A stretch of 63,668 nt of DNA, the filler included, from Chrysochromulina tobinii (lineage: Eukaryota): NCBI GenBank assembly GCA_001275005.1. It is 8 parts of 8 records of this genome, joined end to end, with 100 filler letters (N's around TTAATTAATTAA, not from the genome) between each part and the next. Parts side by side here need not be neighbours in the genome. Positions count along the whole stretch, not along the records: positions 50,845 to 58,443 come from JWZX01000377.1; 7 more parts are not named here. One strand, written 5' to 3'. Below are positions 1,426-58,543 of this stretch, piece by piece; positions within the stretch are counted from its first letter, which is position 1; each line of letters opens with the position of its first letter. Position numbers and translations under genes: made by a program. The notes under the pieces are model-generated. The model was not told where the DNA came from. It was given only the letters and a program-made list of their open reading frames with translations, and searched no databases.

Positions 1426-2196
1426 TTGGGTGAATGGTGTGGTTTGTGGAGAAGGTCGTGACGAGTGAGCCGGAGAAGAAGGCCTTGCTAAACGAGCTGG
1501 GCGCTTACGACATGACCGACCTCGATGTCTACGTGCTGAAGCAGATGGCATAGACGACGACGACGACGACGACGACAACGACAAGGAGGACGCGGCCGCC
1601 CATACTCGATTTGGTACTACGTACGGGCCAAGCCGCCGGCACGCATGCCAAGGTCTTCGACCCAGGGCTGGGGCTGGGGCGCGTGTGCAACGTCCTCGTG
1701 CAGCACTGGGACCGCGTCGTCGAGCTCGTCCAGGTACTTGTCACGGCTCTGAGCATCGGCATAGTCATGGCCGCGCGTCTCCCGGATCCCCGTGTGTGCT
1801 CATGTGCGTGTGTTAGAAATCAGACCCCTGTGTGTATGTTGGAAATCACACAAGGCCTCCTGCCAGTCTAGACTTAGTCTAGACTATAGTCCTTGTAAGG
1901 TTTGTTGTTTAAGCGCGCCCGCCAGACCTACGCCAGACCGCCCGCACCGGCGGAGCCATGCGGCCGGAGACGGGAGAGCTCGGGATGAGCTCACCGTTGT
2001 CGACTGTTTCGACCCGCGTTTTACTTGGATACTCACGCACAGACAACGGGTGTCCCGGCTCCTCCCGATATATTTGACGGAGATTTTACATATTTGAACC
2101 GGTACCTCGTCGCGTCGGAAGACGAAATCGCTCGCTGTCGTGTTCACAGCCGACACAGCCGTGTCGGTTTGATGCATGCACGTCTAGCGATGCGCG

Positions 2197-3654
2197 ATGG
2201 GCATCTCTGAGCCCTCGCTTGACGCAGTTCAACTCGACGACGACGTCACGGGCGCACTGCAAGCAGCTGGCTGTGGCGATGCGAAAGTGCAGGTCGGTGG
2301 CATGTTCGACTCACATGGCTGCAGTTCGTGGTGCAAGGAGGCTCGCAGCAAAATTGACTGCAATAGTTGCGACTGCGTGAGTGTCATGAGTGCCGCGGCC
2401 CGCCTCACCACATGCCACATGCGCGCGCGCACGCGAACAGATCGCCAATAGCACGCCAACCACACACATGCCAACTTCGTGTATCTGTGATGCCCGTGTC
2501 ATGCCCGCGTGTCGCCGTGTGCCAACTCTTGATCCTGCATTCCTGCTGCTTACTGCTGCTGGTGTGCTGGCGTTGACGTTACATGCCCGCGGATCACCTC
2601 TTTCGCGCAGGCGCTCTGCCCCTTTTGCCGAGCGAGCGTGCTCCCACCGTCGCCACGCCCGCCATCTCCCAACCCACCGCCACCACCGCATCCGCCGCCG
2701 CCGCCGCTGCCATCGCCGCCGCCGCCGCCTTGTCCAGCGAATTCCGCGATGCCAGCACGTTGTGACACGTGGTGCAAGGAGATGTACGCGCCACGCCACT
2801 GCGGTCGCGACACCTGCGACTGTGACGCATGCCACTTTTGTGTCTTGCAACTGGTGAGCCTGCTGCCGCCTCCCCTACGTCCATCGCCGCCGCCCAGGCC
2901 ATCGCCGTCGCCCGGGCCGTCACCGCCCCCGTCACAGTGCCCGCCGCCACCGCCGCCGCCGTATCCGCTGCCACTGAACATGTGGCCCCACGCCCTTCCC
3001 TCCAATAAACCAAATCCAACGCCGCCGCCGCCCAAGGCGCTGCCAACGCCGCATTCATCCACTCATCAGCCGTCGCCACTGACGTCGCCACAACGCTCCC
3101 CTTTAGCCCCTCACCGTTCACACACTTACCTGACCGGACAGCTCGCAACGACGACATCGAGCGGCCAGCTGACGAACCCGACGAGCGGCCTGACGAACCC
3201 GACGAGTGGCCTGTCGGCGTTTGTGGCATGGGATGCGGTACGCCAACAGAACCTTCAGTCGGGCCTCCTCATACCGTCAACCACGCAATTGCCCAACCAA
3301 CAACCTCACCTCCAACAACCTCTCCAGGCTCAGGAGACGTCGTCGGCGGCGTCGGCAGCGGCGGCAACCGTGCATCCGAGTGCGTTGGTTTTCTTCATTC
3401 TGACCTTCAGCGCTCTTATCATTGCTCTCCTCCTCTGCTGCGCCGCTGCATACTTCCTAATTCGGGGCGCTGCAAACTTGCTGGCCCACTTGATTGCCCA
3501 CATGATGGGTGACGGGCGTTACGGCGGACGACTAAATCCGAGCGCTCTCCTAGTACCCCGCTCGAGCCGCCATCGGCCAGGCGGCGGCAGCGGTGGCCGT
3601 TATGAAAGCCGTTATGAGAGCGTCCTCCCGACGATCCACGAGTCCTTCCGCTGA
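2197..3654 (+). CDS. Cys/Pro-rich single-pass membrane protein, 2 exons seen (intron 2377-2610)
   Basis: A phase-0 GTGAGT...GCAG intron joins CSSWCKE...CNSCDC to ALCPFC, rebuilding a module that recurs downstream (CDTWCKE...CDCDACHFC). Poly-Pro spacers and a TM helix (ALVFFILTFSALIIALLLCC). Start uncertain. Confidence 0.6.
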
Positions 3655-3751
3655 AGACGGGCGCGCGAGGTGAGCTACCTCTGAAGATGGGTGCGCACAC
3701 TACCTTCATTCACATATTCACAGTACAAAACTTCAATTCACACTCTCATCG

Positions 3752-5336
3752 ATGGCGTCGTCTTTTCGGCGGCGCGAGCGCTTCTCGCTGCTGCCGCTCC
3801 GACCGATAGACGAGACGCGCGCCGAGTTTTCGACGGCGCTCTCGCTCCGTAACGCGTGCGTCGCCTTCCACGACGACAAGTACTCGTACCACCGCGCTCA
3901 CTTTGTCGTCGATGGCCCTCTCGAGAGCCCGATCGTCATGCACGGCTTCGACGAGCGCGCGAGCGGCTACCAGCGGCTGACGGTGGTGCGCCGTGCGGAG
4001 GAGTACGACCGCCTTTCGATCGGCATGTGTCGGCGCGAGGCCCTCGGCCTCGGCGTGCCCGTCTCGCACGCCTCCTCCATCTACCATCAGCAGTTCCACG
4101 CAGTGCCTTCGTGGCTTGCGCTGCGGAAGCTCGTTGCGGACGCCGGGCTGGGCGAGAATGCGCCCGCGGCAGCGTTCGTACCGCTCGCCTTTGCCAGCGC
4201 CGCGCTCGGGCACGGCAAACCCGCCCAGCCACGCCGCTGGTACGCGTGGGAGTTCTCCATCCGCCCGCTCACCACAGCGAGTGCAGACGACATCGCTGCC
4301 GCGGCCAGCCGGTTGCTACGCGCGCCATGCACGTGCTTCGAACGCTTCGAGGCGGACGGGCGCGCGTTCAATCCGGGCGCGCGCTCCTCCGCGCCGGCCA
4401 TCCGTTGGTTTCGGGACGCGGCGCTACGGCACGCGCCGCTGGCCTTGGATGCCGCCGCCGCCGCATCAGCAGCAGCAGCAGCAGCAGCATCAGTAGCAGC
4501 AGCCGGGATGGCACCAGGCGGCGGCGGCAGCGGCGGCGGCAGCAACGGCGGCGGCGCGCTCTTACTCTTTGTGAGTCGGCAGGGCGTGCGGAGAGCCCTT
4601 TCGAACGAAGCCGACGTCCTCACCCTCATCGCACGCTCGCAAGCTTTGCGTGTCGAGTCGGCTCTGGGGGGCTCCTATGCGTCCTCCTCCTCCTATGCGT
4701 CCTCCTCCTCCTCCCTAGCGCTGTCTCGAGCGCCTCGACTGATGAGAGTTGTGCTCGAGCAGCTACCCATGGTCGAGCAGATGCAACTCGTCGCGTCCGC
4801 CACGGCGCTCATTGCAGTGCATGGTCAGGTCTGTTTGGGCCTCTGATCGCCTCTGATGGCCACTGATGGCCACTGATGGCCACTGATTGCAGTACATGCA
4901 CAGGCGCTCGCCTGGGTGCATGCCTTCGGAGCCTTCCTGCATGCAAGTGCTCACTACGGCGCCCTGCCGCAGGCGCTCGCCTGGGTCGCCTTCCTGCCTC
5001 CTGCATGCAAGTGCTCACTACGGCGCCCTGCCGCAGGCGCTCGCCTGGGTCGCCTTCCTGCCTTCGGAGCGACGCGTCACCAGCGTGGTCGAGGTGTCGA
5101 TCCAAACTCGAGCCGGCCAGCCCACCTTGAATGCATGCTACGAGGGCTGGAGCGCCGCGTTGGGCGTGCGTTACTTTCGTGTCGCCGGGCGGCTCACGGG
5201 CGGTTGCACGGGCGGCGCGACGAGCCGCGACGACGAGGCGCAGCGTTCGCACAAGCTGCTCGCATGCAACGTGACGTGCAACCCTGCACAGCTCGTCGGG
5301 ACCATCCTTTCCGTCGCGCAGCTGGTGGGCGGATAA
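3752..5336 (+). CDS. Glycosyltransferase family 61 (DUF563)-like protein (intron 4829-5036)
   Basis: The spliced product reads LLFVSRQGVRRALSNEADVL...LEQLPMVEQMQLVASATALIAVHGQ|ALAWVAFLP...VVEV, matching the GT61 R-x-R-x-x-N...EQ...HG signature. Confidence 0.75.
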
Positions 5337-5695
5337 TTCGCAAGATATAGCTAGAGGGAAGAGGGTAGACGAGCCTACAGTACCGCTGAACTCGCCACCC
5401 TACACACAACGAGTAGATATTTTGTTCACATTTGGTCGTTATGGAAGTTGGAAACTTGGAACTCCCTAAGTCGCCGGCCGACCACCAATTCGGTATTCAA
5501 TCTTATAACGTGACATCACCACAGAGGAAGAGACAGACCGTACACACACGTATGTACTGCCTTTGGTGGGGGAGCGGCATCTATTGGTAAGCTCTCAGAT
5601 CGAGTTCCCACGGACGTGGTCTCGATCGTTTCGGTTTCGGCGAGGAATTTACGAACTCGCGCTATGCTTGGCGGTTACCGGTACACCGGTACAAT

Positions 5696-8600
5696 ATGAT
5701 GGTGGCGCGACCGCCGCGCACCATGGCAACAGCGCCGGCACAGCCAAACACGTCTTTCTCGGCTGCAGCGTCCGCGCCCGAAGACGCCCCCATGCGCTCT
5801 CGCAGGCATAGCAGCCATAGCAGGGAAAGAGTCGCCACAAGAAACAAGCCGAGGGAGTTCCGAGCTGTGCCCGTCTTGCACTACCCGCTCAAGGAGCAGC
5901 GCTCGATACATGTGCTGCCTCATCAGGAGGAGCTCAACCCATTCCAGGACTATCTTCCACTTTCGACGCACGTGGTGCAGCCGGCGACATCGACAGGCGA
6001 AGACAGTCCGCGCACAGTTCACATTGGCGCAAGCCCCCTCCGTGCAACGCTGAGGCCGGCGCCCGTGCCGCGCGAGCGTCCTCGCACAGCCCTCACCCCG
6101 TCCGAGCTCGACGCGCTGATGACGGAAATCATCCATCGGCCACCGCCTCGGCTGGAGGTCGCGCAGTCGGCTCCTCTGCCGCCGTCGGCCAACGAGTTCT
6201 ACGGCCCGGATATCGACGGCCGCGAGTTGAAGCCCTCTTGGCGGCGCATACACTCCACCCAGTGGCGAGCACGTGTCGACAAGAACTGGCAGCGCGCCGT
6301 CTCGGCCGCGGGCGCGCGAGCTGCACGGCCGTCGACCGCACCTTCTCGAGCGCGAGCGTCCACGCGCTCGTCCAGATTAGGCATGTCCGACTGGACGAAC
6401 GGCTTCGTGGACGACGAGGACGAGGACGAGTACTACGAGGACAACGAAGAGGAGGAGGACGATGGTGTGGAGTCTGCGTCGGATATGGCGAGTGGCGTCG
6501 CCTCGGCACCGGCACCGGCGACTCCGATGGCGTCGGCAAGTCCTATCCGGCAGTCCGCGCCGGTCCTATCCCTCACAACTGCCGAGGGGCAACCATATGG
6601 CAGCACGAAGAGCGCTGGGGCCCTTTCAAAGCTCCTCAGCCGCAGCGCCAGCTCCGGTGCCGGCGGCGGCGGCGGCTGCGGCGGCGGCAACGCGGCTGCC
6701 GGCGGTGCGGCCGGCGTTGCGGCCGGCTCGTGCGGCGGCAGCGTTGCGGGCGGCGTTGCGGGCGGCAGCGGCGGCGGCGGCGGTCCGTTTCGTCTGAAAG
6801 ACATGGCCAAGCTGACCGTTTTGGGGAACGGCAAGGCCAGCAAACTCGCCCGTGAACGCACTGCGAGGGCAGAGGCGTACGCCCAGAAAGCCTTGACGAA
6901 GGCGGAGATGGCTGCCACGGCGGCAGAGGCCTTTGACTCGCGCCACGTGGTGAAGCTGGCTCATACGGTGAAGCTGGAGCGAATGGCGAGCGCGAAGGCG
7001 ACTGAAGATCGCAACTTGTCGTTCAACCAAGCGTTGAAGCGGATCCGATCCAACCGGCTTGTGATCCCCGACGCTCCCCCGGAGATGGTGATTGCATCTG
7101 ATGGCCCCTGATGGCTCTTCATCGCCTGGGGAAGCCTCTGAAGGCCTCTGATGGCCTCTGATGGACTCCGATTGCCTCCCTCATCAGATCCGGCCGATGG
7201 CGGGGATCCCAATCAGGCGGCCGCCTCCCAAGCCCAGATGGAGTTTGGACCGGAGCATTTGGAAGCCACGTGCTGCGTGGTGCGACTCGCAAGAGTTCTG
7301 GGATACCGATACGGCGCGCGTCAAGCGCTTCCATCTCGACTGGGCGAGATTGCTCGCGCTCGGCGTGCCCAAAATGACGCTTCGGCTCGCCGCGCAGGCT
7401 CTCAAAGGGAGCTCCGCTACGCCCCACCCGCAGGCTGCCGATGCGGACGTCTTAGACGACGCGCCCGATGGCAAGGGAAAGCCCAGCGATGCGAAAGGGA
7501 AGGAGGCGGCGGCGGAGGCGGTGGTGGAGGCTGCTTCACAGGCGGAACTGCAGAAGATGAAGGACGTGCTGTGGACCTTTTCGAGCCTACTGCACAACGT
7601 CTTCTCGTTCTACGCGGCCACGGGCGGCGACCCTCTTTACATCCAGCTCAACGAGTGGACGCAATTCCTCATGGACTACAATCTGGTGCAGCTGATGGCC
7701 TCTGATGGCCTCTGATGGCCTCTGATGGCCTCTGATGGCCCCGCTACCAGGTGCAACGCGCCTCGAAGCATTGCAAGAAGGCGGATTGCGATCGCATCTT
7801 TATCGCCGTCGATGCGGCAGCCACACGATTCGCCGAAGCGCTCGAAAAGGATCCAAGCGCCGTCGCGAGCGCTGCGGCCGAGAACCCCATCATGACTGTG
7901 TCGCCCAAACGCGCCGGGTCGCCTTCTGGCGCGCGACCAGGATCGCCTTTCAAGAAGGAGGGGCCGTCACATGTTCACAAGAAGAAGTCGCTAGGACGGG
8001 TGGACTTCCTGGTGAGGGCGTCTGATTGCGCTCTAATTGCGTCTCTGATTGGGCCTCTGATTGTAAATCATTGCCACTGAGCTTGCGCCCTGCCTCTTCC
8101 ACAGACTGCTCTCATCCACTTGTCGCTTCATCGGTTCGTTCTCTCGAACGAGGAGGTGACCCTTTCGGGGGCGCTGTATCGGTTGGTGAGTCTGATTGGG
8201 TCTGATTACACCTCATTGCTCTCGAACGAGGAGACAACCCTCTCGGGCGCGCTGTATCGGTTGGCGACCGCCTCGGATGGTCCTGAGGCTGGCCCCGAGA
8301 TCGTCCCCGAGTTTGTACCCCGAGCGTCCCTACTTGGCAAGTATGGCCTCTGAGCGCGCCCTCCCCCCCCCTCCAATTCGGTAGGTGCATCAACTGATCT
8401 ACAAGCAGGCCGACCCCAGGCAGCTCTCCGACCCAAACTCCTTTCGGCGGCGTCACTGCTACGGCGGTGCCGCCGCGCTCGAGTACAGCCGCACCGGCGA
8501 GGACGTCGATCTCGTGCTGCGAGGTTACGAGGCCCCGTTGCGGTTGGTCTTCAACGCGCTCAACCAGGCCGACTTGGGCGTCGCCGCCACGCTACTCTCG

Positions 8601-46091: not shown

Positions 46092-47345
46092 CTATGGCTT
46101 AATGAGGGGCGTCTGTTCCGTCTTGGCGCCGGCGGTTGTGGCCGCCTCGATACCCCCCGTGTCGGCTGGGAGCGGCTTAGGCTTTTCGTGCAGAGTGAGG
46201 TACGAGTAGGCGCAGAGAGTGACGACGACAGTCGCCACGCCGAACCAGCTGACCGGATCATTCACGCCCGCCTGCACCGCTGAGACCACGATGAGCAGCA
46301 CCTTGACACCGCTGGATCCGACCGTGGCGGTCAGTGCAGTTGTAACTGCGCCGTGCCGGGAAGCAAAGAGCGAGTGCAAGGGGGGAGGTAGGGGGGAGGG
46401 GTGGGGTGCGTGTCAGAGGAAGCGACGCTGGGCACAGCGGGCACGGAAAGTGTGCCGGACAGGGGGGACTTGCGATGGAGAAGACCGCAGGCTCGGGCAC
46501 AGGCTGCGGAGTGCGGTTCGCCGCGTACGCATTGTAAAGTAGAACATAGACAGGTTGAAGCAAAAGGCCATGCTGCTGCCAATGGCGATGATGATGAGGC
46601 CGATGGCTCGCGTGTCCGGGTCTGACAGGTACGCGATGCTCTGCTCGCGCTCGTCGAGGCACGCCCAGGTGATCAGCATCAGTACGAAGGCGATGCTGCA
46701 GTCGTACACCAGTACGACAGTCGGCTCGAGCTTCGGCTTGTCGGCCATGGGGCCCACACCAGCGCAGAGGATCATCACGAGGACGCCCTTGATCGCTCCC
46801 GCCATCATGCCAATGATGCACATGAACACGCCCATGATGCTGCTCGAGCCCCCCTCGGCTGACATCTTGTGCCAGACAGAGAGCACGGAGCCGACGCACA
46901 GGCCGAAGACCACAAAGATCATCATTGCCGAGTACGTCTTATTGGCAAAGAGAAAGGAGAATGACATGGTGAAGAAGGGTAGGGTCACCTTGATCGCCTG
47001 GTTCAGGAAGAGCGTCACAAGCGCAAGGCTCGCATTGTTGAGCCCATTCATGAGGTACGAGCAGAGGCCCATCGGAATGATGAGCAACCTGTATTCCCAC
47101 GCCTGTTGGAACGTGGGGCCACCCATTGCGGGCTTAGTGACCGACCACTGCAGCAGGAACGCGGCAATGGCCGACACGAGCATGTGGAACATGGTGTAGA
47201 ACCAGGTGAAGTGGAAGCCTGGCCACCTGTCCTTCTGGAGCGCCCACGAATTGAACTCGCAGAGCCCGATGTTGAAGATGCAGAACGATGCACATGCGAG
47301 GAGCTGCTTCCAGAGGGCTGGTTGCTCAGGGAGGACTCCAGTCAT
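46092..47345 (-). CDS. Triose-phosphate/nucleotide-sugar transporter family protein (SLC35/DMT), 2 exons (intron 46346-46528)
   Basis: FNSWAL...GFHFTWFYTMFHM, GLNNASLALVTLFLNQAIK.TLPFFT, AFCFNLSMF...TTALTATVG...K; multiple TM helices. Start could alternatively be 47402. Confidence 0.85.
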
Positions 47346-47583
47346 CGGCACGCCTTCGAGCCCGACATGGAAAACCACCCAAATAGGAAACTCGGTGTGC
47401 ATGCTTTCTCAATGAGAACTGTCCTCTTGAAGAAGATTCTCCATGCGACAGCATAATTTTGTTCGGCTCTTCTGGTTGCATGCAGATCATGTTCGCCGCG
47501 CGATTGAAAGAGAAAACCCGCGTCACCATTTTTTAATGCGAAGGTGCGATTTGGATCGGTACAATGTAGGCGCGCCGAGATCA

Positions 47584-50028: not shown

Positions 50029-50744
50029 CTAGTGCCCTCCTCCTCCTCCGCCGCCGCCGCCAGATGACCGCATCACGCCGCAGCACGCATCCTTGCTCGA
50101 CTTGAGATAGGCGTAGAACGCCGAGAAGAGAATGACCACGCCGATGCCGGCATAGAGGAGAATGATTTCCCCCCCGTTCTCCTCGTCGTCCTCCTCGTCC
50201 TGCCAAATCAATGAGATAACGATGTTGAGCACGAGCGCGAACGTGTTGGCGACCGACATGGTCGTGGCCGTCGTGTAGCTGAGCACGAAGAACTGCGCAA
50301 GCGCACGAACGCCGCCGAGCGCGGCCGTGCCCGTGAACCGGAACCATTCGGTAGCGTTCATGTTCGCCTCGAACACCATGATGATCTCTCCGTTGGCCCA
50401 CACCCAGGGAACGAAGATGGGGATCATGAACAGGTCGACCCAGAAGAGGAGCGAGAGCGCGGTGAACTTCTTCTTGTACTGCATGAACGCATGGTGCGTG
50501 AACGCATACTTGCTCGCTGAGCAAAGCACTGCCGCGCACGCGAAGAGGACGCCGGTGACGTTGACCCTATTGATGTCGGAGACGGAGACGAGGATGGCGC
50601 CAACAACCAGGCCGCTGACAGTGCCGTAGATAATGGGGTGCTGGAACTTGCCGTACAGTACACTCTCGATCATGACCGTCCAGAACGGGTTCGTCGCGGC
50701 GATGCACTGCTGCAGCGCAACCGAGATGTTGGCAAGCGCAATGT
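50029..50744 (-). CDS. Second TPT/SLC35-family transporter, 5'-partial
   Basis: Frame is open from the spacer: IALANISVALQQCIAATNPFWT, TGVLFACAAVLCSASKY, FFVLSYTTATTMSVAN. Confidence 0.85.
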
Positions 50745-50844
50745 NNNNNNNNNNNNNNNNNNNNNNNNNNNNNNNNNNNNNNNNNNNNTTAATTAATTAA
50801 NNNNNNNNNNNNNNNNNNNNNNNNNNNNNNNNNNNNNNNNNNNN
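50745..50844. other. Artificial contig spacer
   Basis: N44-TTAATTAATTAA-N44. Confidence 0.99.
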
Positions 50845-51515
50845 GGAATCCTCAATCATTATATACCCATAGGCTAAGATACCCGTCACAGATATCCCCA
50901 CAGCCCGACCGGTGCGGCAGCACTATCGATATAGGCCCAAAATGGGAAACTATGCCAACTATTCTTTGCTTCAGTTCAGTTCAGTTTCTTCGCGGTCCCC
51001 CCACGCTCACTCCACCGTCTCGACGGACGGCTCCTTTGCAATAGTACAGTACTATACACAGTAGTCTTGCTTTTTTCAATTTCACCCAGCATGGCGCTAA
51101 GAACAGTCGCTAGTAGAGCCACCATCGCCAATTAACTGCTCAATCATGAATCAACAATCATGGTTGCCCCCCCTTTCATCAGACATCACCCTCTCGCTCC
51201 CTTGTGTGCATGCTTGTGTGCAAGGGCCCTCTAGACAAGCACGCGCCACTGCCGAAGGTCGACGTCGAGGTTGTCGTTCGCCACTACTCGGATATATCGG
51301 GCCATCTACACGGGTACGGGGTAGCATGAGACATGATATGTTGTGTGAGCAGGGGAGATGAGGAAGAGGGGAGGATCGTGTTTGTTCTTGCCCGCGTCGA
51401 AAGCTTTGCTCCTCGGCATACGGTTCGGCATAATGGTGTATTCGAGCAAAGCAAGCGCGCACGCAAGTGGAGTGAGTCGCGCGCGCTGGCGACCATTGCA
51501 CGCGCGCGCGTCCCG

Positions 51516-51594
51516 TCTGGGAGACCGACATCTCATCTGGGAGACCGACGTGTCATCTGGGAGACCGACATCTCATCTGGGAGACCGACATCTC
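51516..51594. repeat. 20-bp tandem repeat (TCTGGGAGACCGACATCTCA)x4 just downstream of the LOX stop
   Basis: Four near-perfect units with no spacers. Confidence 0.9.
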
Positions 51595-51630
51595 GTCCCA
51601 CACATCACGCTGGTGCGCGTCGCGAGCACT

Positions 51631-54600
51631 TCAGATGGATACAGACGTCTCGAGAATGCGCGGGTTGAACGCAACAAATTCGTGACCCGTGGCGCCGCGG
51701 CGCACGTTGCGCTCGTCGATTGCTTTCGCTAGCGCCTCGAGGGCCACCTGGAAGCCTCTCACCTGATGCAGGAGGCAATCAGAGGCAATCAGTGATCATC
51801 AGTGGCAGTCGATTAGAATCAAAGCTTCATAAGGCCTATGGAAACGTCTCACCGCGTCGAGCACGCCTTGCTGCTTGCGCGCCGTCTCCCATTCGTTCAC
51901 GCTAAAGAGGTGTGAATACTCGTCCATCAGAGGCGGCTGGCGGACGCCTGTGTCGAGATGGCAATGAGGGGTGCAATCAGTGCTGCCATTGGTTGCTATC
52001 AGGCAGCCAGCAATCCATCAGTGGTCCATCAGAGGCGGCTAGACGCATGCCTGTGAGCGCGATGATGACGAGCGCCTGGGCGTGCGATTGGACATCCGGT
52101 TCGACCGTGCCGTTGGCGAGCTTTGGCGCCAAGCCGACAGGCGAGGTCAGGTATTCCACTATGCTGCCGACGAGCTCGTGGCGCCCCGTCACGCTGAAGA
52201 TGAGCTCGGTCACCTGCGGAGGCCATCACAAATTTGCTCTTGGAGTCAGAGGCAATCCAGCGCCAATCAGATGGGCTATCAAGTGACCATCAGCGGTTCG
52301 AGAGGAGCTCGGCCGTTACCAAGGTGACGAGCGAGCTGAGGCCGAGTGGAGGCAGCCGCCATGGCGTATCGAACTGCACCTCAAACGACGCCCAAAAGGC
52401 ACGCAGCTCATCGTCGGCATGCACTGCAGCATCGTCGGGGAAGAAGGGCACGAGGAACGCGCGCACGTAGGCCCCGATCGCATTCCACAGCGCGAGGCCG
52501 TCGACCGCCAACGGCCAGTGCGCGACGAAGGCATCGGGTAGGCCGGCCGCGGCGATCCGCTCGGGAAAGGGCACGTACCTGATCAGGGAGGCACTCAGAT
52601 GTCATCATAAGGTCGCCTTACGGTCGTCAGTGGCCATCAGTGGCCATCAGAGGCCATCAGAGAGGTCATCTGTGGCCATCAGTGGCCACCAGTGACCATC
52701 AGTGGCCATCAGTTCGGCTCGCGGACTGGAACGTACGTCCACTCGCGGGCCATGTCCGCAAAGTAAGTGGTCCACGACTCAGCGGTGAGAGCAAAGGTGC
52801 GATGGGCAAAGCCGCCGACAGGCATGAGTAGGTCCATGGATGCGGAATTGATCTTAGCGGCCCCATAGTAGTGGGGCTTGAGCAGACGTCGCAGCGGATG
52901 CGTCGGCGAGAGCGTCGTGCGTGCGGCACAGTCGAGGCCATTCGAGAGGATCCAATGCGTGTGCAACAGATGATCACGCAAGGTGAGCGACGCGCCGAGA
53001 GTGGCCTTGAACAGAGCCTTTGCATGCCCCCACAGCGCGTCCGACGGTGTGAAGAGCTTCGAGTGTGAAGAGCTCCACACGCCGAGAAGGGGCGGCATGC
53101 TGCCATCGGCCGGCACCGTACCGAGGTACGCGCTCGCGCCGTATCGGCACCACGTCGAGCGCACAGCGTACCTGGACATGTACTCAATGTTGCATTCAAA
53201 CGCGGACTCCGGCGGTACGTCGTGGCCCGCTGCCGCAGCCGAGCGCGCCGCCTTTAGGTACCAACTGCCAACGCCGACAATGCACAACTCGGCGATGCCC
53301 GCGTCCGTATCAAGATCATCCCACGTCTTGTACTGCTGGGGCAGGTACTTGCCAAAGACAGCCTCGATCGAAGCGTACGCCTCGGCGCGGCTTGCTGCCG
53401 ACGTCGATCTGCCATCACCCCCTTCACCCCAATACGTGAGTTTCTCAAGCGCCTCGTCCTTTTCGAAGCTCAGTGTGGTCGAAAATGCAAACAGGGCCTC
53501 TCGCGCCCATTCCTGATTAAGGAGGCAATCAGTGGTCCTCAGTGGTCCTCAGTGACGATCGGTGGTCATCATCAGTGACGTGCCCACACCTTGAGCCATG
53601 CGGGCGTTGATGAAGGAGGCAATCAGAGGTCCTCAGTGGCCATCATCAGTGACGTGCCCACACCTTGAGCCATGCGGGCGTTGATGAAGGAGGCAATCAG
53701 AGGTCCTCAGTGGCCATCATCAGTGACGTGCCCACACCTTGAGCCATGCGGGCGTTGATGAAGGAGGCAATCAGTGGTCCCCAGTGGCCATCATCAGTGA
53801 CGTGCCCACACCTTGAGCCATGCGGGCGGCTGGTCCTCATCCCGAGAGATGATCTTGATTCCTCCAAAGGGCATGTGGATCCACTCGTCCGCGTAGTCCT
53901 GCTTGGGCAGCAGCTCGGCCGTAATCTTATCCGAAGTGCCCACCGTGGTTGGATCGACCACTTTCTGCACCGCCCAGATCATGAGCTGTGTGTTCTCATT
54001 CGTAGACGTGTAGAACTTGTTCGTGCGCTCCTCAGCACTGCGCTCGCTCCGCAGCCACGCGTCGGCTCGTGCAAGCTCGCGGCCGTTGAGCGTGTCCGTC
54101 ATCTGCTGCAGCTCAAAGGGCGTTGAGTTGAAGTAGGTGACCTTGATCTCCTCGGGAGGCATCGCAGGTGTGGAGCTGCCGCCTTTGCTGCCCTTGGGAG
54201 CGGATCTGTGCGCTGACCAGAGGCGCTTCACGCCACCGTACGGCGTGGCGGCGCGCACAAAGGCGCGCAGGAAGGCAAAGATGGTCTGCAAGCCAAACTC
54301 TTTGCCGGGGCACGCGTGCGAGCCAGGGCTCGCGAGGTCCGGGGCGAGCGCAAAGTCCGCGAAGTTCACACCGAGCCGATGGTAATCGGCGACGCTTCGA
54401 AGCTTGAAGTATCTGATGAGGGTGCAATCAGCATGCACTCAGTGCTCCTCAGGCGCAATCAGCATGCACTCAGTGCTCCTCAGGCGCAATCAGCATGCAC
54501 TTAGTGCTCCTCAGGCGCAATCAGCATGCACTTAGTGCTCCTCAGGCGCAATCAGCATGGCCTCCAGCAGCAATCTCTGTGGCCACGGCAGCGCGTTCTC

Positions 54601-57136
54601 GACGCATCGGGCGCCATCAGTGGCAATCAGCGTGGCCATCAGTGGCAATCAGCGTGGCCATCAGTGGCAATCAGCGTGGCGAGTGTGTACTCGGCGTCAT
54701 CGCCCCAGACGGCGGGATCACGTGACGCCTGCATCAAGTTGAGCATGACGCAGCGCGGTGGGCGGTTGCCATCCGAGCGCTCGAAAAAGGGTAGAATGAA
54801 CACCGGCGAGAAGAGCCGAATGATTTCGAGTACGTACCTGATGAGGCACGCGATCAGAGGTCGTCACTGGCCATCGGTGGCCCTCAAAAAACCACCCGTG
54901 TCCATCTGTGGCCATGATCAAGCCATGATCAGGCCACAATAAGGTCATCATCGAGTGATACGCGGCCACCAGTGGCCGTCCGTGGAAGGCAACGTACGGT
55001 TCGATGTCCTTCGGCTGGTCGAGCGAGAAACCCTGTGGCAGGTGCCGTTCTCCCCAGGCAGAGTACGGGATGGCGAGGGCGTACCTGATTAGGGGCAATT
55101 AGAGGCAATCAGAGGTCATCAGAGGTCATCAGAGCTCATTAGGGAGGAGGGCGAGGGCGTTCCAAATTAGGGTGGAGGGCGAGGGCGTACGCGATGACGT
55201 TGGGCACCGAGATGCCGCCCGCGAAGAGGAGCGCGTCCATGAGCATGCTCGCCAGTTGTGTCACCTTGGCCGGCCCAAGCGTGCGCATCTCGTCCGGCGA
55301 GATCTTGTGCAGCGCTGCCTCATACCGTGTGAGCCACGAGGCCTTCTCTTCAAGTGTCTTGTCGACGCCGAGCGTGGCGCGCAGCACAGGCATGGCCGAG
55401 GATGGCACACTGAACGCGACGAGGATCTGTGACTGGAGCTTCGCAAACGTGAGCGCCTCTGCGTCCGTCAGCTGGATCCCGAGCATCACCTGAGGACGGA
55501 GGCGATCAGTGGCAATCAGTGGCAATCGGTGGCAATTTGTGACTGTCACCGGTCATCAGTGGCAATCAGATCCCATTCGCGAAAGTCAGCGGTCATCAGT
55601 GGCAATCAGTGGCAATCAGTTACTGTCAGCGGTCATCAGTAGCAATCAGTGACCAGTAGCTGGATGCCAAGCATCACCTCGTGCTGCAGCTGGCACACGA
55701 ACATCTTCGTGTCGGCGCCGACGCGCAGTGTGCGACGTCCGGCGAGGAAGGCGGCGGCGCGCGCCTCAAGCCATGCCAAGCCACCAAGGGCATCGAGGCA
55801 AGACGGGCCACACAGCCTGACGAAAATTGGACGTGGTCATCAGCGGTCATCAGCGGTCATCAGTGGTCATCAGTGCTCATCAGTGCTCATCAGTGCTCAT
55901 CAGTGCTCATCAGTGCTCATCAGTTGCCACACGCCTGACGAGAATTGGACGTGCCCACGCGTGCGTCTCCGTCGGCGCGGAGAGTGCGATGCCGTGCCAT
56001 GGTACCTCGGGCCACATGTGCTCATTCAACGCCATCACCCCCAGAAAGTTGTGGCGCTCGGCGGTGCCGTCGTGGTCGTTAGTGCCGAGCTTGTGTCCGA
56101 GAGCTCGCAGCTGGCTGACCACCTGATGAGGCACGCCATCGGAGGTCGTCAGGTGCAATCATGTGCAATCATGTGCACTCAGATCTGATGAGTTCGCAGT
56201 TGGCAGACCACCTCACGATGAGAGCAGTAGGTGATGCAGTCCTCGACGAAGGGACCTTGCCACTCCCACCGCTCATTGGAACGGCTGAGCACGTACCTGA
56301 TGAGCGACGCACTCAGCGCTCATCAGTGGCAATCAGTGCTGGACACTCCCACCGCTCACGGGAACGGCTGGAGACGCTGTGAATGTGAACGGCTGGAGAC
56401 GCTGTGAATGTGAACGGCTGGAGACGCACTTGGACGCCGCGTCATCACCAGGTTTGGGCTCCTGGTTCCAAGCGACCGCGAGGGCCGCGACGTTGCGGTA
56501 GTACAGCGCCCCACCGGCCTGCTCGTTGAACCAGCCACTCAGCTTGGAGGTGAGCCAGCCCAGCGGCGCCAGCAGGCTCGCACCGAGGCCACGCTCCGCT
56601 GCGGCAGCCTTCTCCTCCTCGTCGCGCAGCTCTGCCTCGAGCGCCGTGGTGAGCTCCGCGAGCAGCGCTGCCGACACGCGGGCGCCGGCCATGATAGTGA
56701 GGCTGCCTTGCGCCGGTGCGCGCATCGGGTACTCGCGGCGCTCGTCCTCGTGCTCCCGCAGCGCCGCCAACGGCACCATGCACTCACCCATGAAGTCATC
56801 ACTCGACAGGTCATCCTTGTCAAACACGCGGCAATGCAGCTCCCAGTCGGCGCCAGGAGGCGGAGCAGCGAAGCGGAAGGCGAAGTTCCAGGTCGGGGAC
56901 ACGGTGTTCCAACACGTGTCAGAGACACGCTCCGTCTCGCGCGCCTTGGCGCTCCACGCTGCGCCCACTGGCCCCAGCCGAATGATGACAAACGGGTCGG
57001 CAGGGCCCATGATGTCCACGTCCCGGCTGAGCTTCTGAGCCTTCTCGATGAGGATCGCATGGGGTGTGGCTTCTCTCACAGGGGCTTGATGCTCCGCGCC
57101 TTCCGCCGGTGCTCGTGATGAAGCGCCGCAACCCAT
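51631..57136 (-). CDS. C2 domain - CYP74-like cytochrome P450 - lipoxygenase fusion protein (13 exons, 1225 aa)
   Basis: Exons 57136-56430, 56296-56212, 56122-55935, 55816-55678, 55489-55191, 55084-54998, 54837-54691, 54412-53812, 53512-52737, 52578-52320, 52213-52051, 51947-51853, 51762-51631 sum to 3678 nt with no internal stop. N-terminus MGCGAS. C2: ADPFV, SPTWN, VFDKDDLSSDDFMG. P450: LLFAGGISV, LEIIR, RDPAVWG, SHACPGKE. LOX: WGHAK, DHLLHTHW, HPLRRLLKPH, DGLALWNAI, DDELRAFW, IFSVTGRHELVG, IDERN, C-terminal SVSI. Confidence 0.9.
53513..53811 (-). repeat. Intron built from a 74-bp tandem unit that includes the exon end and GT donor
   Basis: CCTTGAGCCATGCGGGCG recurs at 53589, 53663, 53737 and 53811. 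Confidence 0.95.
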
Positions 57137-58443: not shown

Positions 58444-58543
58444 NNNNNNNNNNNNNNNNNNNNNNNNNNNNNNNNNNNNNNNNNNNNTTAATTAATTAAN
58501 NNNNNNNNNNNNNNNNNNNNNNNNNNNNNNNNNNNNNNNNNNN
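58444..58543. other. Artificial contig spacer
   Basis: N44-TTAATTAATTAA-N44. Confidence 0.99.

Follow-up and report, generated by a model that had tools for sequence, protein, structure and literature searches.

A C2–P450–lipoxygenase fusion gene in Chrysochromulina tobinii with a divergent P450 domain predicted to act on lipoxygenase products

Introduction

Microalgae make oxylipins, and the enzymes that act after the lipoxygenase (LOX) step are largely unassigned. Cytochrome P450s of the CYP74 clan carry a nine-residue insertion in the heme loop (PMC8124189; available part of PMC10813956), a named conserved Asn in the I-helix (PMC8124189; available part of PMC13049297) and a PPV motif after E-x-x-R (PMC8124189). 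The available part of PMC13049297 gives the I-helix motif of AOS as G-G-M-K-I and describes self-sufficient fungal fused AOS enzymes whose Asn is replaced by Thr or a nonpolar residue. According to the available part of PMC10864609, diatoms have lost CYP74-like genes and the step after LOX is undemonstrated there.

Here, we describe a gene of Chrysochromulina tobinii (assembly GCA_001275005.1, record JWZX01000377.1) within a window of 63,668 nucleotides, the whole stretch of DNA that was analysed. A sequence-only reading had assigned CYP74-clan hallmarks to its P450 domain and had proposed the LOX product as its substrate, in place of a monooxygenase role.

Results

Gene organization and the lipoxygenase domain

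The window gene is spliced and expressed, and encodes one protein that joins a C2 domain, a very divergent P450 and a lipoxygenase (Table 1). Its exons, translated singly, contain no internal stops and their phases add up; all 12 introns have GT/GC..AG borders, and the exons are collinear in alignment with the full-length relatives P0001 and P0002. RNA contigs show splicing of 8 of the 12 introns. The intron that separates the heme-loop exon from the first LOX exon appears in spliced form in contigs of X1, X2 and X4, from two studies, and no single contig among those found spans the stretch from the thiolate Cys to LOX. The intron just 5' of the heme exon is absent from the RNA-contig joints shown, and one X1 contig reads into it. 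The protein starts with Met-Gly-Cys, which we take to be a myristoylation/palmitoylation signal; 7 of the 18 relatives examined begin with the same triplet, and 2 more have it internally.

Table 1 Features of the fusion gene (positions in the window)
Feature	Position	Strand	Basis or remark
C2 - P450-like - lipoxygenase fusion gene	51631..57136	minus	13 exons, about 1225 aa
N-terminal Met-Gly-Cys start	57119..57136	minus	sequence; predicted myristoylation/palmitoylation signal
C2 domain, predicted Ca2+/membrane binding	56726..57049	minus	Pfam PF00168, E 4.9e-14
P450-fold domain (approximate limits; end of exon 1 to mid-exon 8)	54110..56540	minus	relatives' models
C-helix H-x-x-x-R, predicted heme propionate contact	55949..55963	minus	invariant in alignments A1 and A6
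I-helix groove D-x4-A-G-G-x-S	55202..55237	minus	no acid, no Asn; sequence and alignments
K-helix E-x-x-R then x-P-V	54801..54827	minus	sequence
Long heme loop (+10), thiolate Cys at 54312-54310	54298..54363	minus	sequence, profile alignment
Intron between heme-loop exon and first lipoxygenase exon	53513..53811	minus	spliced in RNA contigs
Lipoxygenase domain, exons 9-13, start approximate	51631..53512	minus	Pfam PF00305, E 6.7e-9
LOX iron ligands	His 52972-52970, His 52957-52955, His 52180-52178, C-terminal Ile	minus	alignment register
Gly at LOX Asn ligand slot	52168-52166	minus	register from P0001 vs 9lby

In the register set by aligning P0001 to 9lby, the LOX domain of the window protein has three His and the C-terminal Ile as iron ligands. 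The fusions keep H-x4-H, the third His and a C-terminal Ile or Val, the fragment P0016 being the exception. A further LOX iron ligand is Asn, His, Ser or Gln, according to the available part of PMC10968607. Gly fills this slot in the window protein, as it does in 12 of the 14 family LOX parts listed, a set that includes two fragments not parsed there; because most fusions share this Gly with the window protein, LOX activity is only predicted. A Ser at the Ala/Gly stereo site presumably directs the window enzyme toward an S-hydroperoxide.

Fold and general motifs of the P450 domain

The P450 domain drew no Pfam match in the window protein or in the relatives scanned, and none from NCBIfam, each at its own cut-off. 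AlphaFold models of the relatives P0002 and L018 (pLDDT 89.6 and 85.3), which stand in for the window protein, show a P450 fold in structure searches (Z 27.6 and 26.5); for the P0002 model the rmsd is 3.3 over 352 aligned residues. Judged by the fold of these models together with the thiolate Cys and E-x-x-R, the domain belongs to the cytochrome P450 superfamily. Since full-length relatives match the exons in order and the domain models of two relatives have a P450 fold, the heme-loop and I-helix motifs described below are not chance.

The best PDB profile matches of the family P450 are bacterial CYPs (E 0.03-0.08), obtained with shallow profiles (A4, 9 rows; A6, 12 rows) that returned no AOS chain at E<=10. 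Profiles A1 and A3 were dropped as P450 probes, LOX and C2 matches having swamped their results. The H-x-x-x-R of the family aligns with the same motif in bacterial P450s. PPV follows E-x-x-R in 14 of the 21 members and x-P-V in 6 (one was not parsed), with Ser in first place in the window protein; a PPV-like motif is present also in ordinary bacterial P450s among the profile matches. In the ESM Atlas, bacterial P450 clusters lie at 0.92-0.93 with <170 shared features, and we treat them as leads only.

Heme loop and I-helix

In the heme loop, encoded by exon 8, 16 residues separate Phe (54363-54361) from the thiolate Cys, as against 6 in FxxGxxxC; the sequence-only reading had placed this peptide correctly and had rightly called the loop about 10 residues longer than canonical. 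When an ordinary Streptomyces P450 is aligned to the family profile (probability 96.7), the gap falls at this insertion. The window domain lacks the monooxygenase signature F-x-x-G-x-x-x-C-x-G, and in all 21 members the FxxG glycine is gone and the loop is longer. The insertion measures +10 in 12 members, +11 in three, +9 in two, and +4, +5, +6 and +16 in one each, so that the loop is long but its length is not fixed at nine residues: the window has +10 rather than +9, and the family spans +4 to +16. Homology of the insert with that of CYP74 is only putative. Beyond the Cys, position +2 is Ala in 11 of the 21 members, +3 is Lys in every one and +4 is Asp in 16.

The I-helix peptide reported earlier is likewise present on the minus strand, in exon 5, running from Asp (55237-55235) to Pro (55204-55202); this Asp and a Ser (55210-55208) are invariant in the family alignment. 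The acid slot is never acidic in the 19 aligned members (Q in 7, A in 4, V in 4, L in 3 and I in 1), and with neither candidate slot holding Asp or Glu in any of them, the family shares the CYP74-type absence of the acid. The catalytic Asn of CYP74 (Asn321 of AOS) is absent from the window and from both candidate slots in all 19. The invariant Ser most likely occupies the Thr slot, as weak HMMER alignments (E 0.08) suggest, its counterpart being the Thr of A-G-H-E-T for TleB and, for CYP144, the Ser that follows Glu; a shifted register that sets G-G on G-G places Val, Ile or Leu there instead. Of the acid-alcohol pair of canonical monooxygenases, the acid is gone and the alcohol is probably there as Ser, which amends the earlier statement that the acid-Thr pair is lacking.

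Family members and giant-virus-like copies

The LOX domain is present in 13 of the 21 family members and missing in 8. One fusion comes from the named alga Chrysophaeum taylorii and another from an MMETSP transcript that encodes C2, P450 and LOX together; a third is an intronless open reading frame on a giant-virus-like contig that holds the whole fusion. The fusions include two sub-branches with LOX domains only about 25% alike. The P450 can stand alone, since the reading frames of L008, L011 and L023 end at a stop, and both stand-alone and fused copies occur, intronless, on giant-virus-like contigs. The family is invisible to the Pfam P450 model, and its genes are therefore annotated as plain lipoxygenases, as is KAJ8603295.1. 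The family tree gives no donor or direction because it is a quick tree built without an outgroup.

A small neighbour gene in the viral contigs had no credible Pfam or PDB match and no copy in the window, and a second viral scan with P0058 as query gave no match. Word-indexed protein searches returned nothing for the heme exon or for the P450 domain of a relative; the latter search also missed the known members P0022 and P0028, which fall in its length range, and its blank result is thus no evidence against kinship with CYP74 or CYP5164. None of 101 prokaryotic genomes from one phylum matched, plasmid matches appeared only at E>=0.8, and three 18-residue matches in prokaryotic genome contigs were rejected as chance.

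Discussion

We predict that the P450 domain is probably a reductase-independent enzyme that rearranges the hydroperoxide made by its partner LOX, without NADPH. The best functional evidence is the conserved fusion itself, found in those 13 members; the prediction gains support from the three His ligands and C-terminal Ile retained by the LOX partner, the lost acid and the lost FxxG glycine. The self-sufficient fungal fused AOS enzymes that do without the Asn (available part of PMC13049297) provide a precedent. N-acylation and the C2 domain would bring the enzyme to the membrane when Ca2+ rises, LOX would oxygenate released PUFA, probably to the S-hydroperoxide, and the ferric P450 would cleave the O-O bond and rearrange the LOX product, likely into a signalling or defence lipid. 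If so, a weak ranking favours an epoxyalcohol-type isomerase, to which we give about an even chance, followed by an allene oxide synthase or bicyclase and then a lyase.

It is possible, and we offer it tentatively, that this P450 lineage, with its Ser/Asp I-helix and no Asn, evolved hydroperoxide chemistry independently of CYP74, and became fused to LOX in planktonic algae, where the single chain would serve as an oxylipin synthase triggered by Ca2+. Giant viruses would then have captured it once, as the whole fusion or the P450 alone and always beside a conserved gene of 165 residues, and would use it to reprogramme the oxylipin signals of the infected host.

The same chemistry could reside in a genuine CYP74- or CYP5164-clan enzyme that has diverged far, an account that differs from ours in ancestry and overlaps with it in function. 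The long loop at the same place speaks for such kinship, as do the residues at Cys+3 and Cys+4, the frequent P-P-V, and the Val, Ile or Leu found at the Thr position under the G-G register, which resembles the AOS motif of PMC13049297 (available part). Among the 96 chains with Z>=8 in two wide structure searches, AOS 3dam ranked 48 with one model (Z 23.3, rmsd 3.9, 382 aligned) and 35 with the other (Z 23.7, rmsd 3.6, 377 aligned); its aligned length was the longest among the 50 matches listed in both, where it was also among the longest chains. Against kinship stand these middling ranks, reached at 12-13% identity and 3-4 Z below the top rows, the bacterial profile matches, the missing Asn and an insertion of exactly +9 in only 2 members. 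Two further searches had no CYP74 chain among the matches listed. We consider membership doubtful: of the hallmarks first claimed, the long loop and missing acid hold, whereas the absent Asn, the probable Ser and the mid-list position of AOS weaken the case. The CYP74 label is only partly earned, even as the proposal that the domain acts on the LOX product gains support.

It is unlikely that the domain instead oxygenates a second substrate, either as a reductase-fed monooxygenase of PUFA or the LOX product or as a peroxygenase with the LOX hydroperoxide as oxygen donor. Its nearest folds are bacterial monooxygenases, the Ser aligns as it does with TleB and CYP144, and there are stand-alone copies; structural nearness at 10-19% identity, however, says nothing on function, the acid is never present, the altered heme loop is universal, and no fusion scanned contains a reductase domain. 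Several observations run against the hydroperoxide reading: the invariant Ser might activate O2, the family lacks the CYP74 Asn and has stand-alone P450 copies, Gly holds a LOX ligand slot, and no single RNA contig among those found spans Cys to LOX. That the domain serves only as a lipid-binding or linker module with no catalytic role is highly improbable, since for all its divergence and the blindness of Pfam and NCBIfam, the Cys, E-x-x-R, H-x-x-x-R and I-helix Asp/Ser never change across sequences, viral-type copies among them, that are about 30-45% alike.

If hydroperoxide rearrangement is correct, the P450-LOX fusion would represent a third way for a single chain both to form a hydroperoxide and to use it. 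The intronless stand-alone and fused copies are easy to express and test, and their presence on giant-virus-like contigs raises the question of viral control over algal lipid signals.

Comparison with known systems

The literature searched contained no P450-lipoxygenase fusion; the known analogues join a catalase to LOX or a dioxygenase to P450. In coral and cyanobacterial fusions, an N-terminal heme domain and LOX share one chain and the LOX product is passed to the heme domain (available part of PMC6627107; PDB 3dy5). Their heme domain is catalase-related, whereas here C2 comes first and the relatives' models show a P450 fold. Fungal fusions (LDS, EAS, AOS) likewise join a self-sufficient P450, in some cases with Thr or a nonpolar residue for Asn, to a hydroperoxide-forming enzyme, but the available part of PMC13049297 identifies that partner as a heme cyclooxygenase-like dioxygenase, not LOX. 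Giant viruses (Mimivirus, Pandoravirus, Tupanvirus; BFVD) also encode P450s, but these are no more than 9-16% identical to our family's model.

With the CYP74 clan (plant AOS/HPL/DES/EAS, CYP440, CYP443), the family shares the P450 fold, a longer heme loop, the missing acid, P-V after E-x-x-R and a tie to LOX products. It differs in lacking the I-helix Asn, in a variable insertion with a mode of +10, in the probable Ser in the Thr slot, in its fusion to LOX and C2, and in a structural identity to AOS of 12-13%. The CYP5164/CYP50918 clan (brown-algal EAS, hydroperoxide bicyclases) comprises algal and protist P450s that use hydroperoxides without a redox partner and, in a comparison by description only, are nowhere presented as LOX fusions by the available parts of PMC10813956 and PMC12843491. 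On present evidence, we prefer to treat the family as a lineage in its own right, whose function would resemble that of CYP74 or of the P450s fused to fungal dioxygenases.

Results

A conserved family of proteins that fuse a C2 domain, a P450 domain, and a lipoxygenase (LOX) domain, hidden from Pfam, is present in algae and in giant-virus-like DNA. Pfam matched C2 and Lipoxygenase on the fusion protein of the window and gave no match for its P450 domain. The Chrysochromulina tobinii gene comprises 13 exons on the minus strand (57136 to 51631) that encode ~1225 amino acids; both peptides quoted in the sequence-only reading, the I-helix and heme-loop motifs, are present on that strand and fall within this gene. 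Each exon, translated singly, is free of internal stops, and the exon phases are consistent throughout. Every one of the 12 introns has GT/GC..AG borders, with two in-phase candidates six bases apart for the first donor. At least 8 of the 12 introns are spliced in RNA contigs from four freshwater runs of three studies, which were compared with positions 51500-55800; introns 1-3 lie outside this stretch. Contigs of runs X1, X2, and X4 show the heme-loop exon spliced to the first LOX exon. Intron 7 is absent among the joints listed, and a contig of X1 extends into it; we accept this intron because the relatives are collinear.

Between 51763 and 56429, the start of most introns nearly copies the first bases of the exon that follows, and these introns are packed with related short repeats. 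GC donors occur in two introns, and one intron contains about four 70-80-base copies of the exon end (53540-53830). Such repeat-rich introns and GC donors may point to a haptophyte. The gene is apparently the only one between two scaffold gaps (50745-50844 and 58444-58543) that, like five similar ones, have runs of N on either side of a short fixed spacer. Two triose-phosphate-transporter-like ORFs lie at 46413-47402 and 50029-50673 (minus).

The same full-length domain order is found in the relatives P0001, P0002, P0007 (Chrysophaeum taylorii KAJ8603295.1), P0010, P0011, and P0021, and in an MMETSP transcript (P0062). P0024 and P0025 combine P450 and LOX without C2, while P0026, P0040, and locus L017 combine C2 and P450 without LOX. 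In a table of 21 members that leaves out near-duplicates and short fragments, 13 have a LOX and 8 do not; the 13 include L015, an intron-containing locus whose LOX is a separate downstream ORF. The LOX of the L009 and L012 sub-branch, ~25% alike to the rest of the family, possibly marks an independent fusion.

Motif, fusion, and virus-like loci (positions for the first two rows are those of the window, for the others those of the contig)
Feature	Positions	Strand	Content or basis
I-helix	55237-55202	minus	sequence
Heme loop	54363-54298; Cys 54312-54310	minus	sequence
L009	139-4875		fusion of P450 with distinct LOX, 1578 aa, long unannotated parts
L012	613-3906		fusion of P450 with distinct LOX
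L007	1484-5005		whole C2-P450-LOX fusion, 1173 aa; beside uridine kinase, DcpS, tRNA synthetase
L008 (= GVMAG contig L024, same locus)	4728-5921		397-aa stand-alone P450; beside intein-bearing Rpb1, metacaspase
L023 (GVMAG)	3227-4984		C2-P450
L011	1872-3167		stand-alone P450
L025 (GVMAG)	about 1900-2400		broken copy
165-183-aa neighbour gene	L007:173-676, L008:4200-4697, L023:2693-3202, L011:1297-1845	minus	

Excerpts of two reports give a nine-residue heme-loop insertion, an I-helix Asn, an ERR triad, and a PPV motif as CYP74 features (PMC10813956, PMC8124189). The heme loop of the window had been read as about 10 residues longer than canonical, and it is: 16 residues separate the loop Phe from the Cys, ten above F-x-x-G-x-x-x-C, and a gap opens at this site in a profile alignment with an ordinary Streptomyces P450. 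Among 27 proteins and fragments, 23 have an insertion of +10, but its length is not fixed at nine and ranges from +4 to +16 across the 21 tabulated members. Kinship with CYP74 may be suggested by Lys at Cys+3 (21/21), Asp at Cys+4 (16/21), and PPV (14/21); the CYP74 heme loop likewise ends with Lys and Asp after the Cys. Against kinship, the CYP74 Asn is found at neither candidate I-helix slot in any of 19 family members, which makes it less probable that the domain is a CYP74.

The proposed loss of the I-helix acid-Thr pair survives in part. The acid is missing (Gln, Ala, Val, Leu, or Ile in 19 members), but in weak HMMER alignments the Thr slot is occupied by a Ser that is invariant in family alignments A1 (17 rows) and A6 (12 rows) and present in all 19 members matched by a search pattern that itself required Ser. 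This Ser could serve O2 chemistry. In a shifted register, G-G on G-G, the Thr slot would instead hold Val, Ile, or Leu, as in allene oxide synthase (AOS), whose Asn321 is placed three positions ahead of G-G-M-K-I in an excerpt of PMC13049297. The family I-helix also has an invariant Asp five places ahead of A-G.

AlphaFold models of the P450 domain (P0002, pLDDT 89.6; L018, pLDDT 85.3) matched P450 structures, with top Z scores of 27.6 and 26.5, respectively. The best matches are bacterial enzymes, nearly tied at 10-19% identity; plant AOS (3dam) ranks 48 and 35 (Z 23.3 and 23.7), with the longest aligned length among the matches listed. The predicted structures prove a P450 fold, at the level of fold and not of clan.

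Three His residues, two of them in H-x4-H, and the C-terminal Ile are retained in the LOX domain. The Asn ligand slot, which in other LOXs holds the Asn or His iron ligand, is Gly in the window (52168-52166) and in 12 of the 14 LOX parts of the family, with two fragments unparsed. A soybean LOX mutant with an Asn-to-Gly change reportedly retains some activity. The LOX domain is likely active. Diatom LOXs have Asn, His, Gln, or Ser at that slot, according to part of PMC10968607.

Gene-dense, intronless contigs with GC of 0.27-0.33 also carry the family; L007 and L011 are labelled virus-like from context. A quick tree without outgroup, flagged for compositional bias, places the intact copies L007, L008, L011, and L023 on a single branch (SH-aLRT 100). 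At all four loci, the same conserved gene of unknown kind (43-54% alike) lies head-to-head upstream of the P450; it has no credible match in Pfam or PDB, and its early G-x-W motif may be reminiscent of lipocalins. Viral P450s of BFVD share 9-16% identity with the family. Excerpts of two reports list a "putative lipoxygenase" without detail in one giant-virus pangenome (PMC10598087) and describe host lipoxygenases that are induced early when G. huxleyi is infected (PMC12489294).

Discussion

Beyond the architecture, splicing, fold, and motifs shown here, a joint scheme is probable. Acylation and the C2 domain would bring the enzyme to membranes, the LOX domain would form a hydroperoxide, and the ferric P450 domain would cleave and rearrange it without a reductase. 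The existence of stand-alone P450 copies argues against this scheme, as does the I-helix Ser with its potential role in O2 chemistry. Fungal fused AOS work this way with Thr or a nonpolar residue replacing Asn, as far as an excerpt of PMC13049297 describes them; because they do without Asn, its absence does not lower the probability that the domain works like CYP74. The earlier reading of the two motifs holds, and its interpretation is supported in part. An epoxyalcohol-type product may be favoured, by the weak argument that several characterised non-plant enzymes are epoxyalcohol synthases (PMC10813956, in part).

We found no published description of a P450-lipoxygenase fusion, and supplementary P450 catalogues of algae or viruses may already name the family. 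The portions available of six reports describe only catalase-LOX fusions and stand-alone CYP74 or CYP5164 enzymes (PMC10864609, PMC12843491, PMC9214053, PMC11814380, PMC12586643, PMC6627107). In catalase-LOX fusions the heme partner of LOX is of the catalase type, whereas in the family described here it is a P450. CYP74 and CYP5164 are stand-alone P450s as described, whereas the P450 of this family is fused to LOX in 13 of 21 members.
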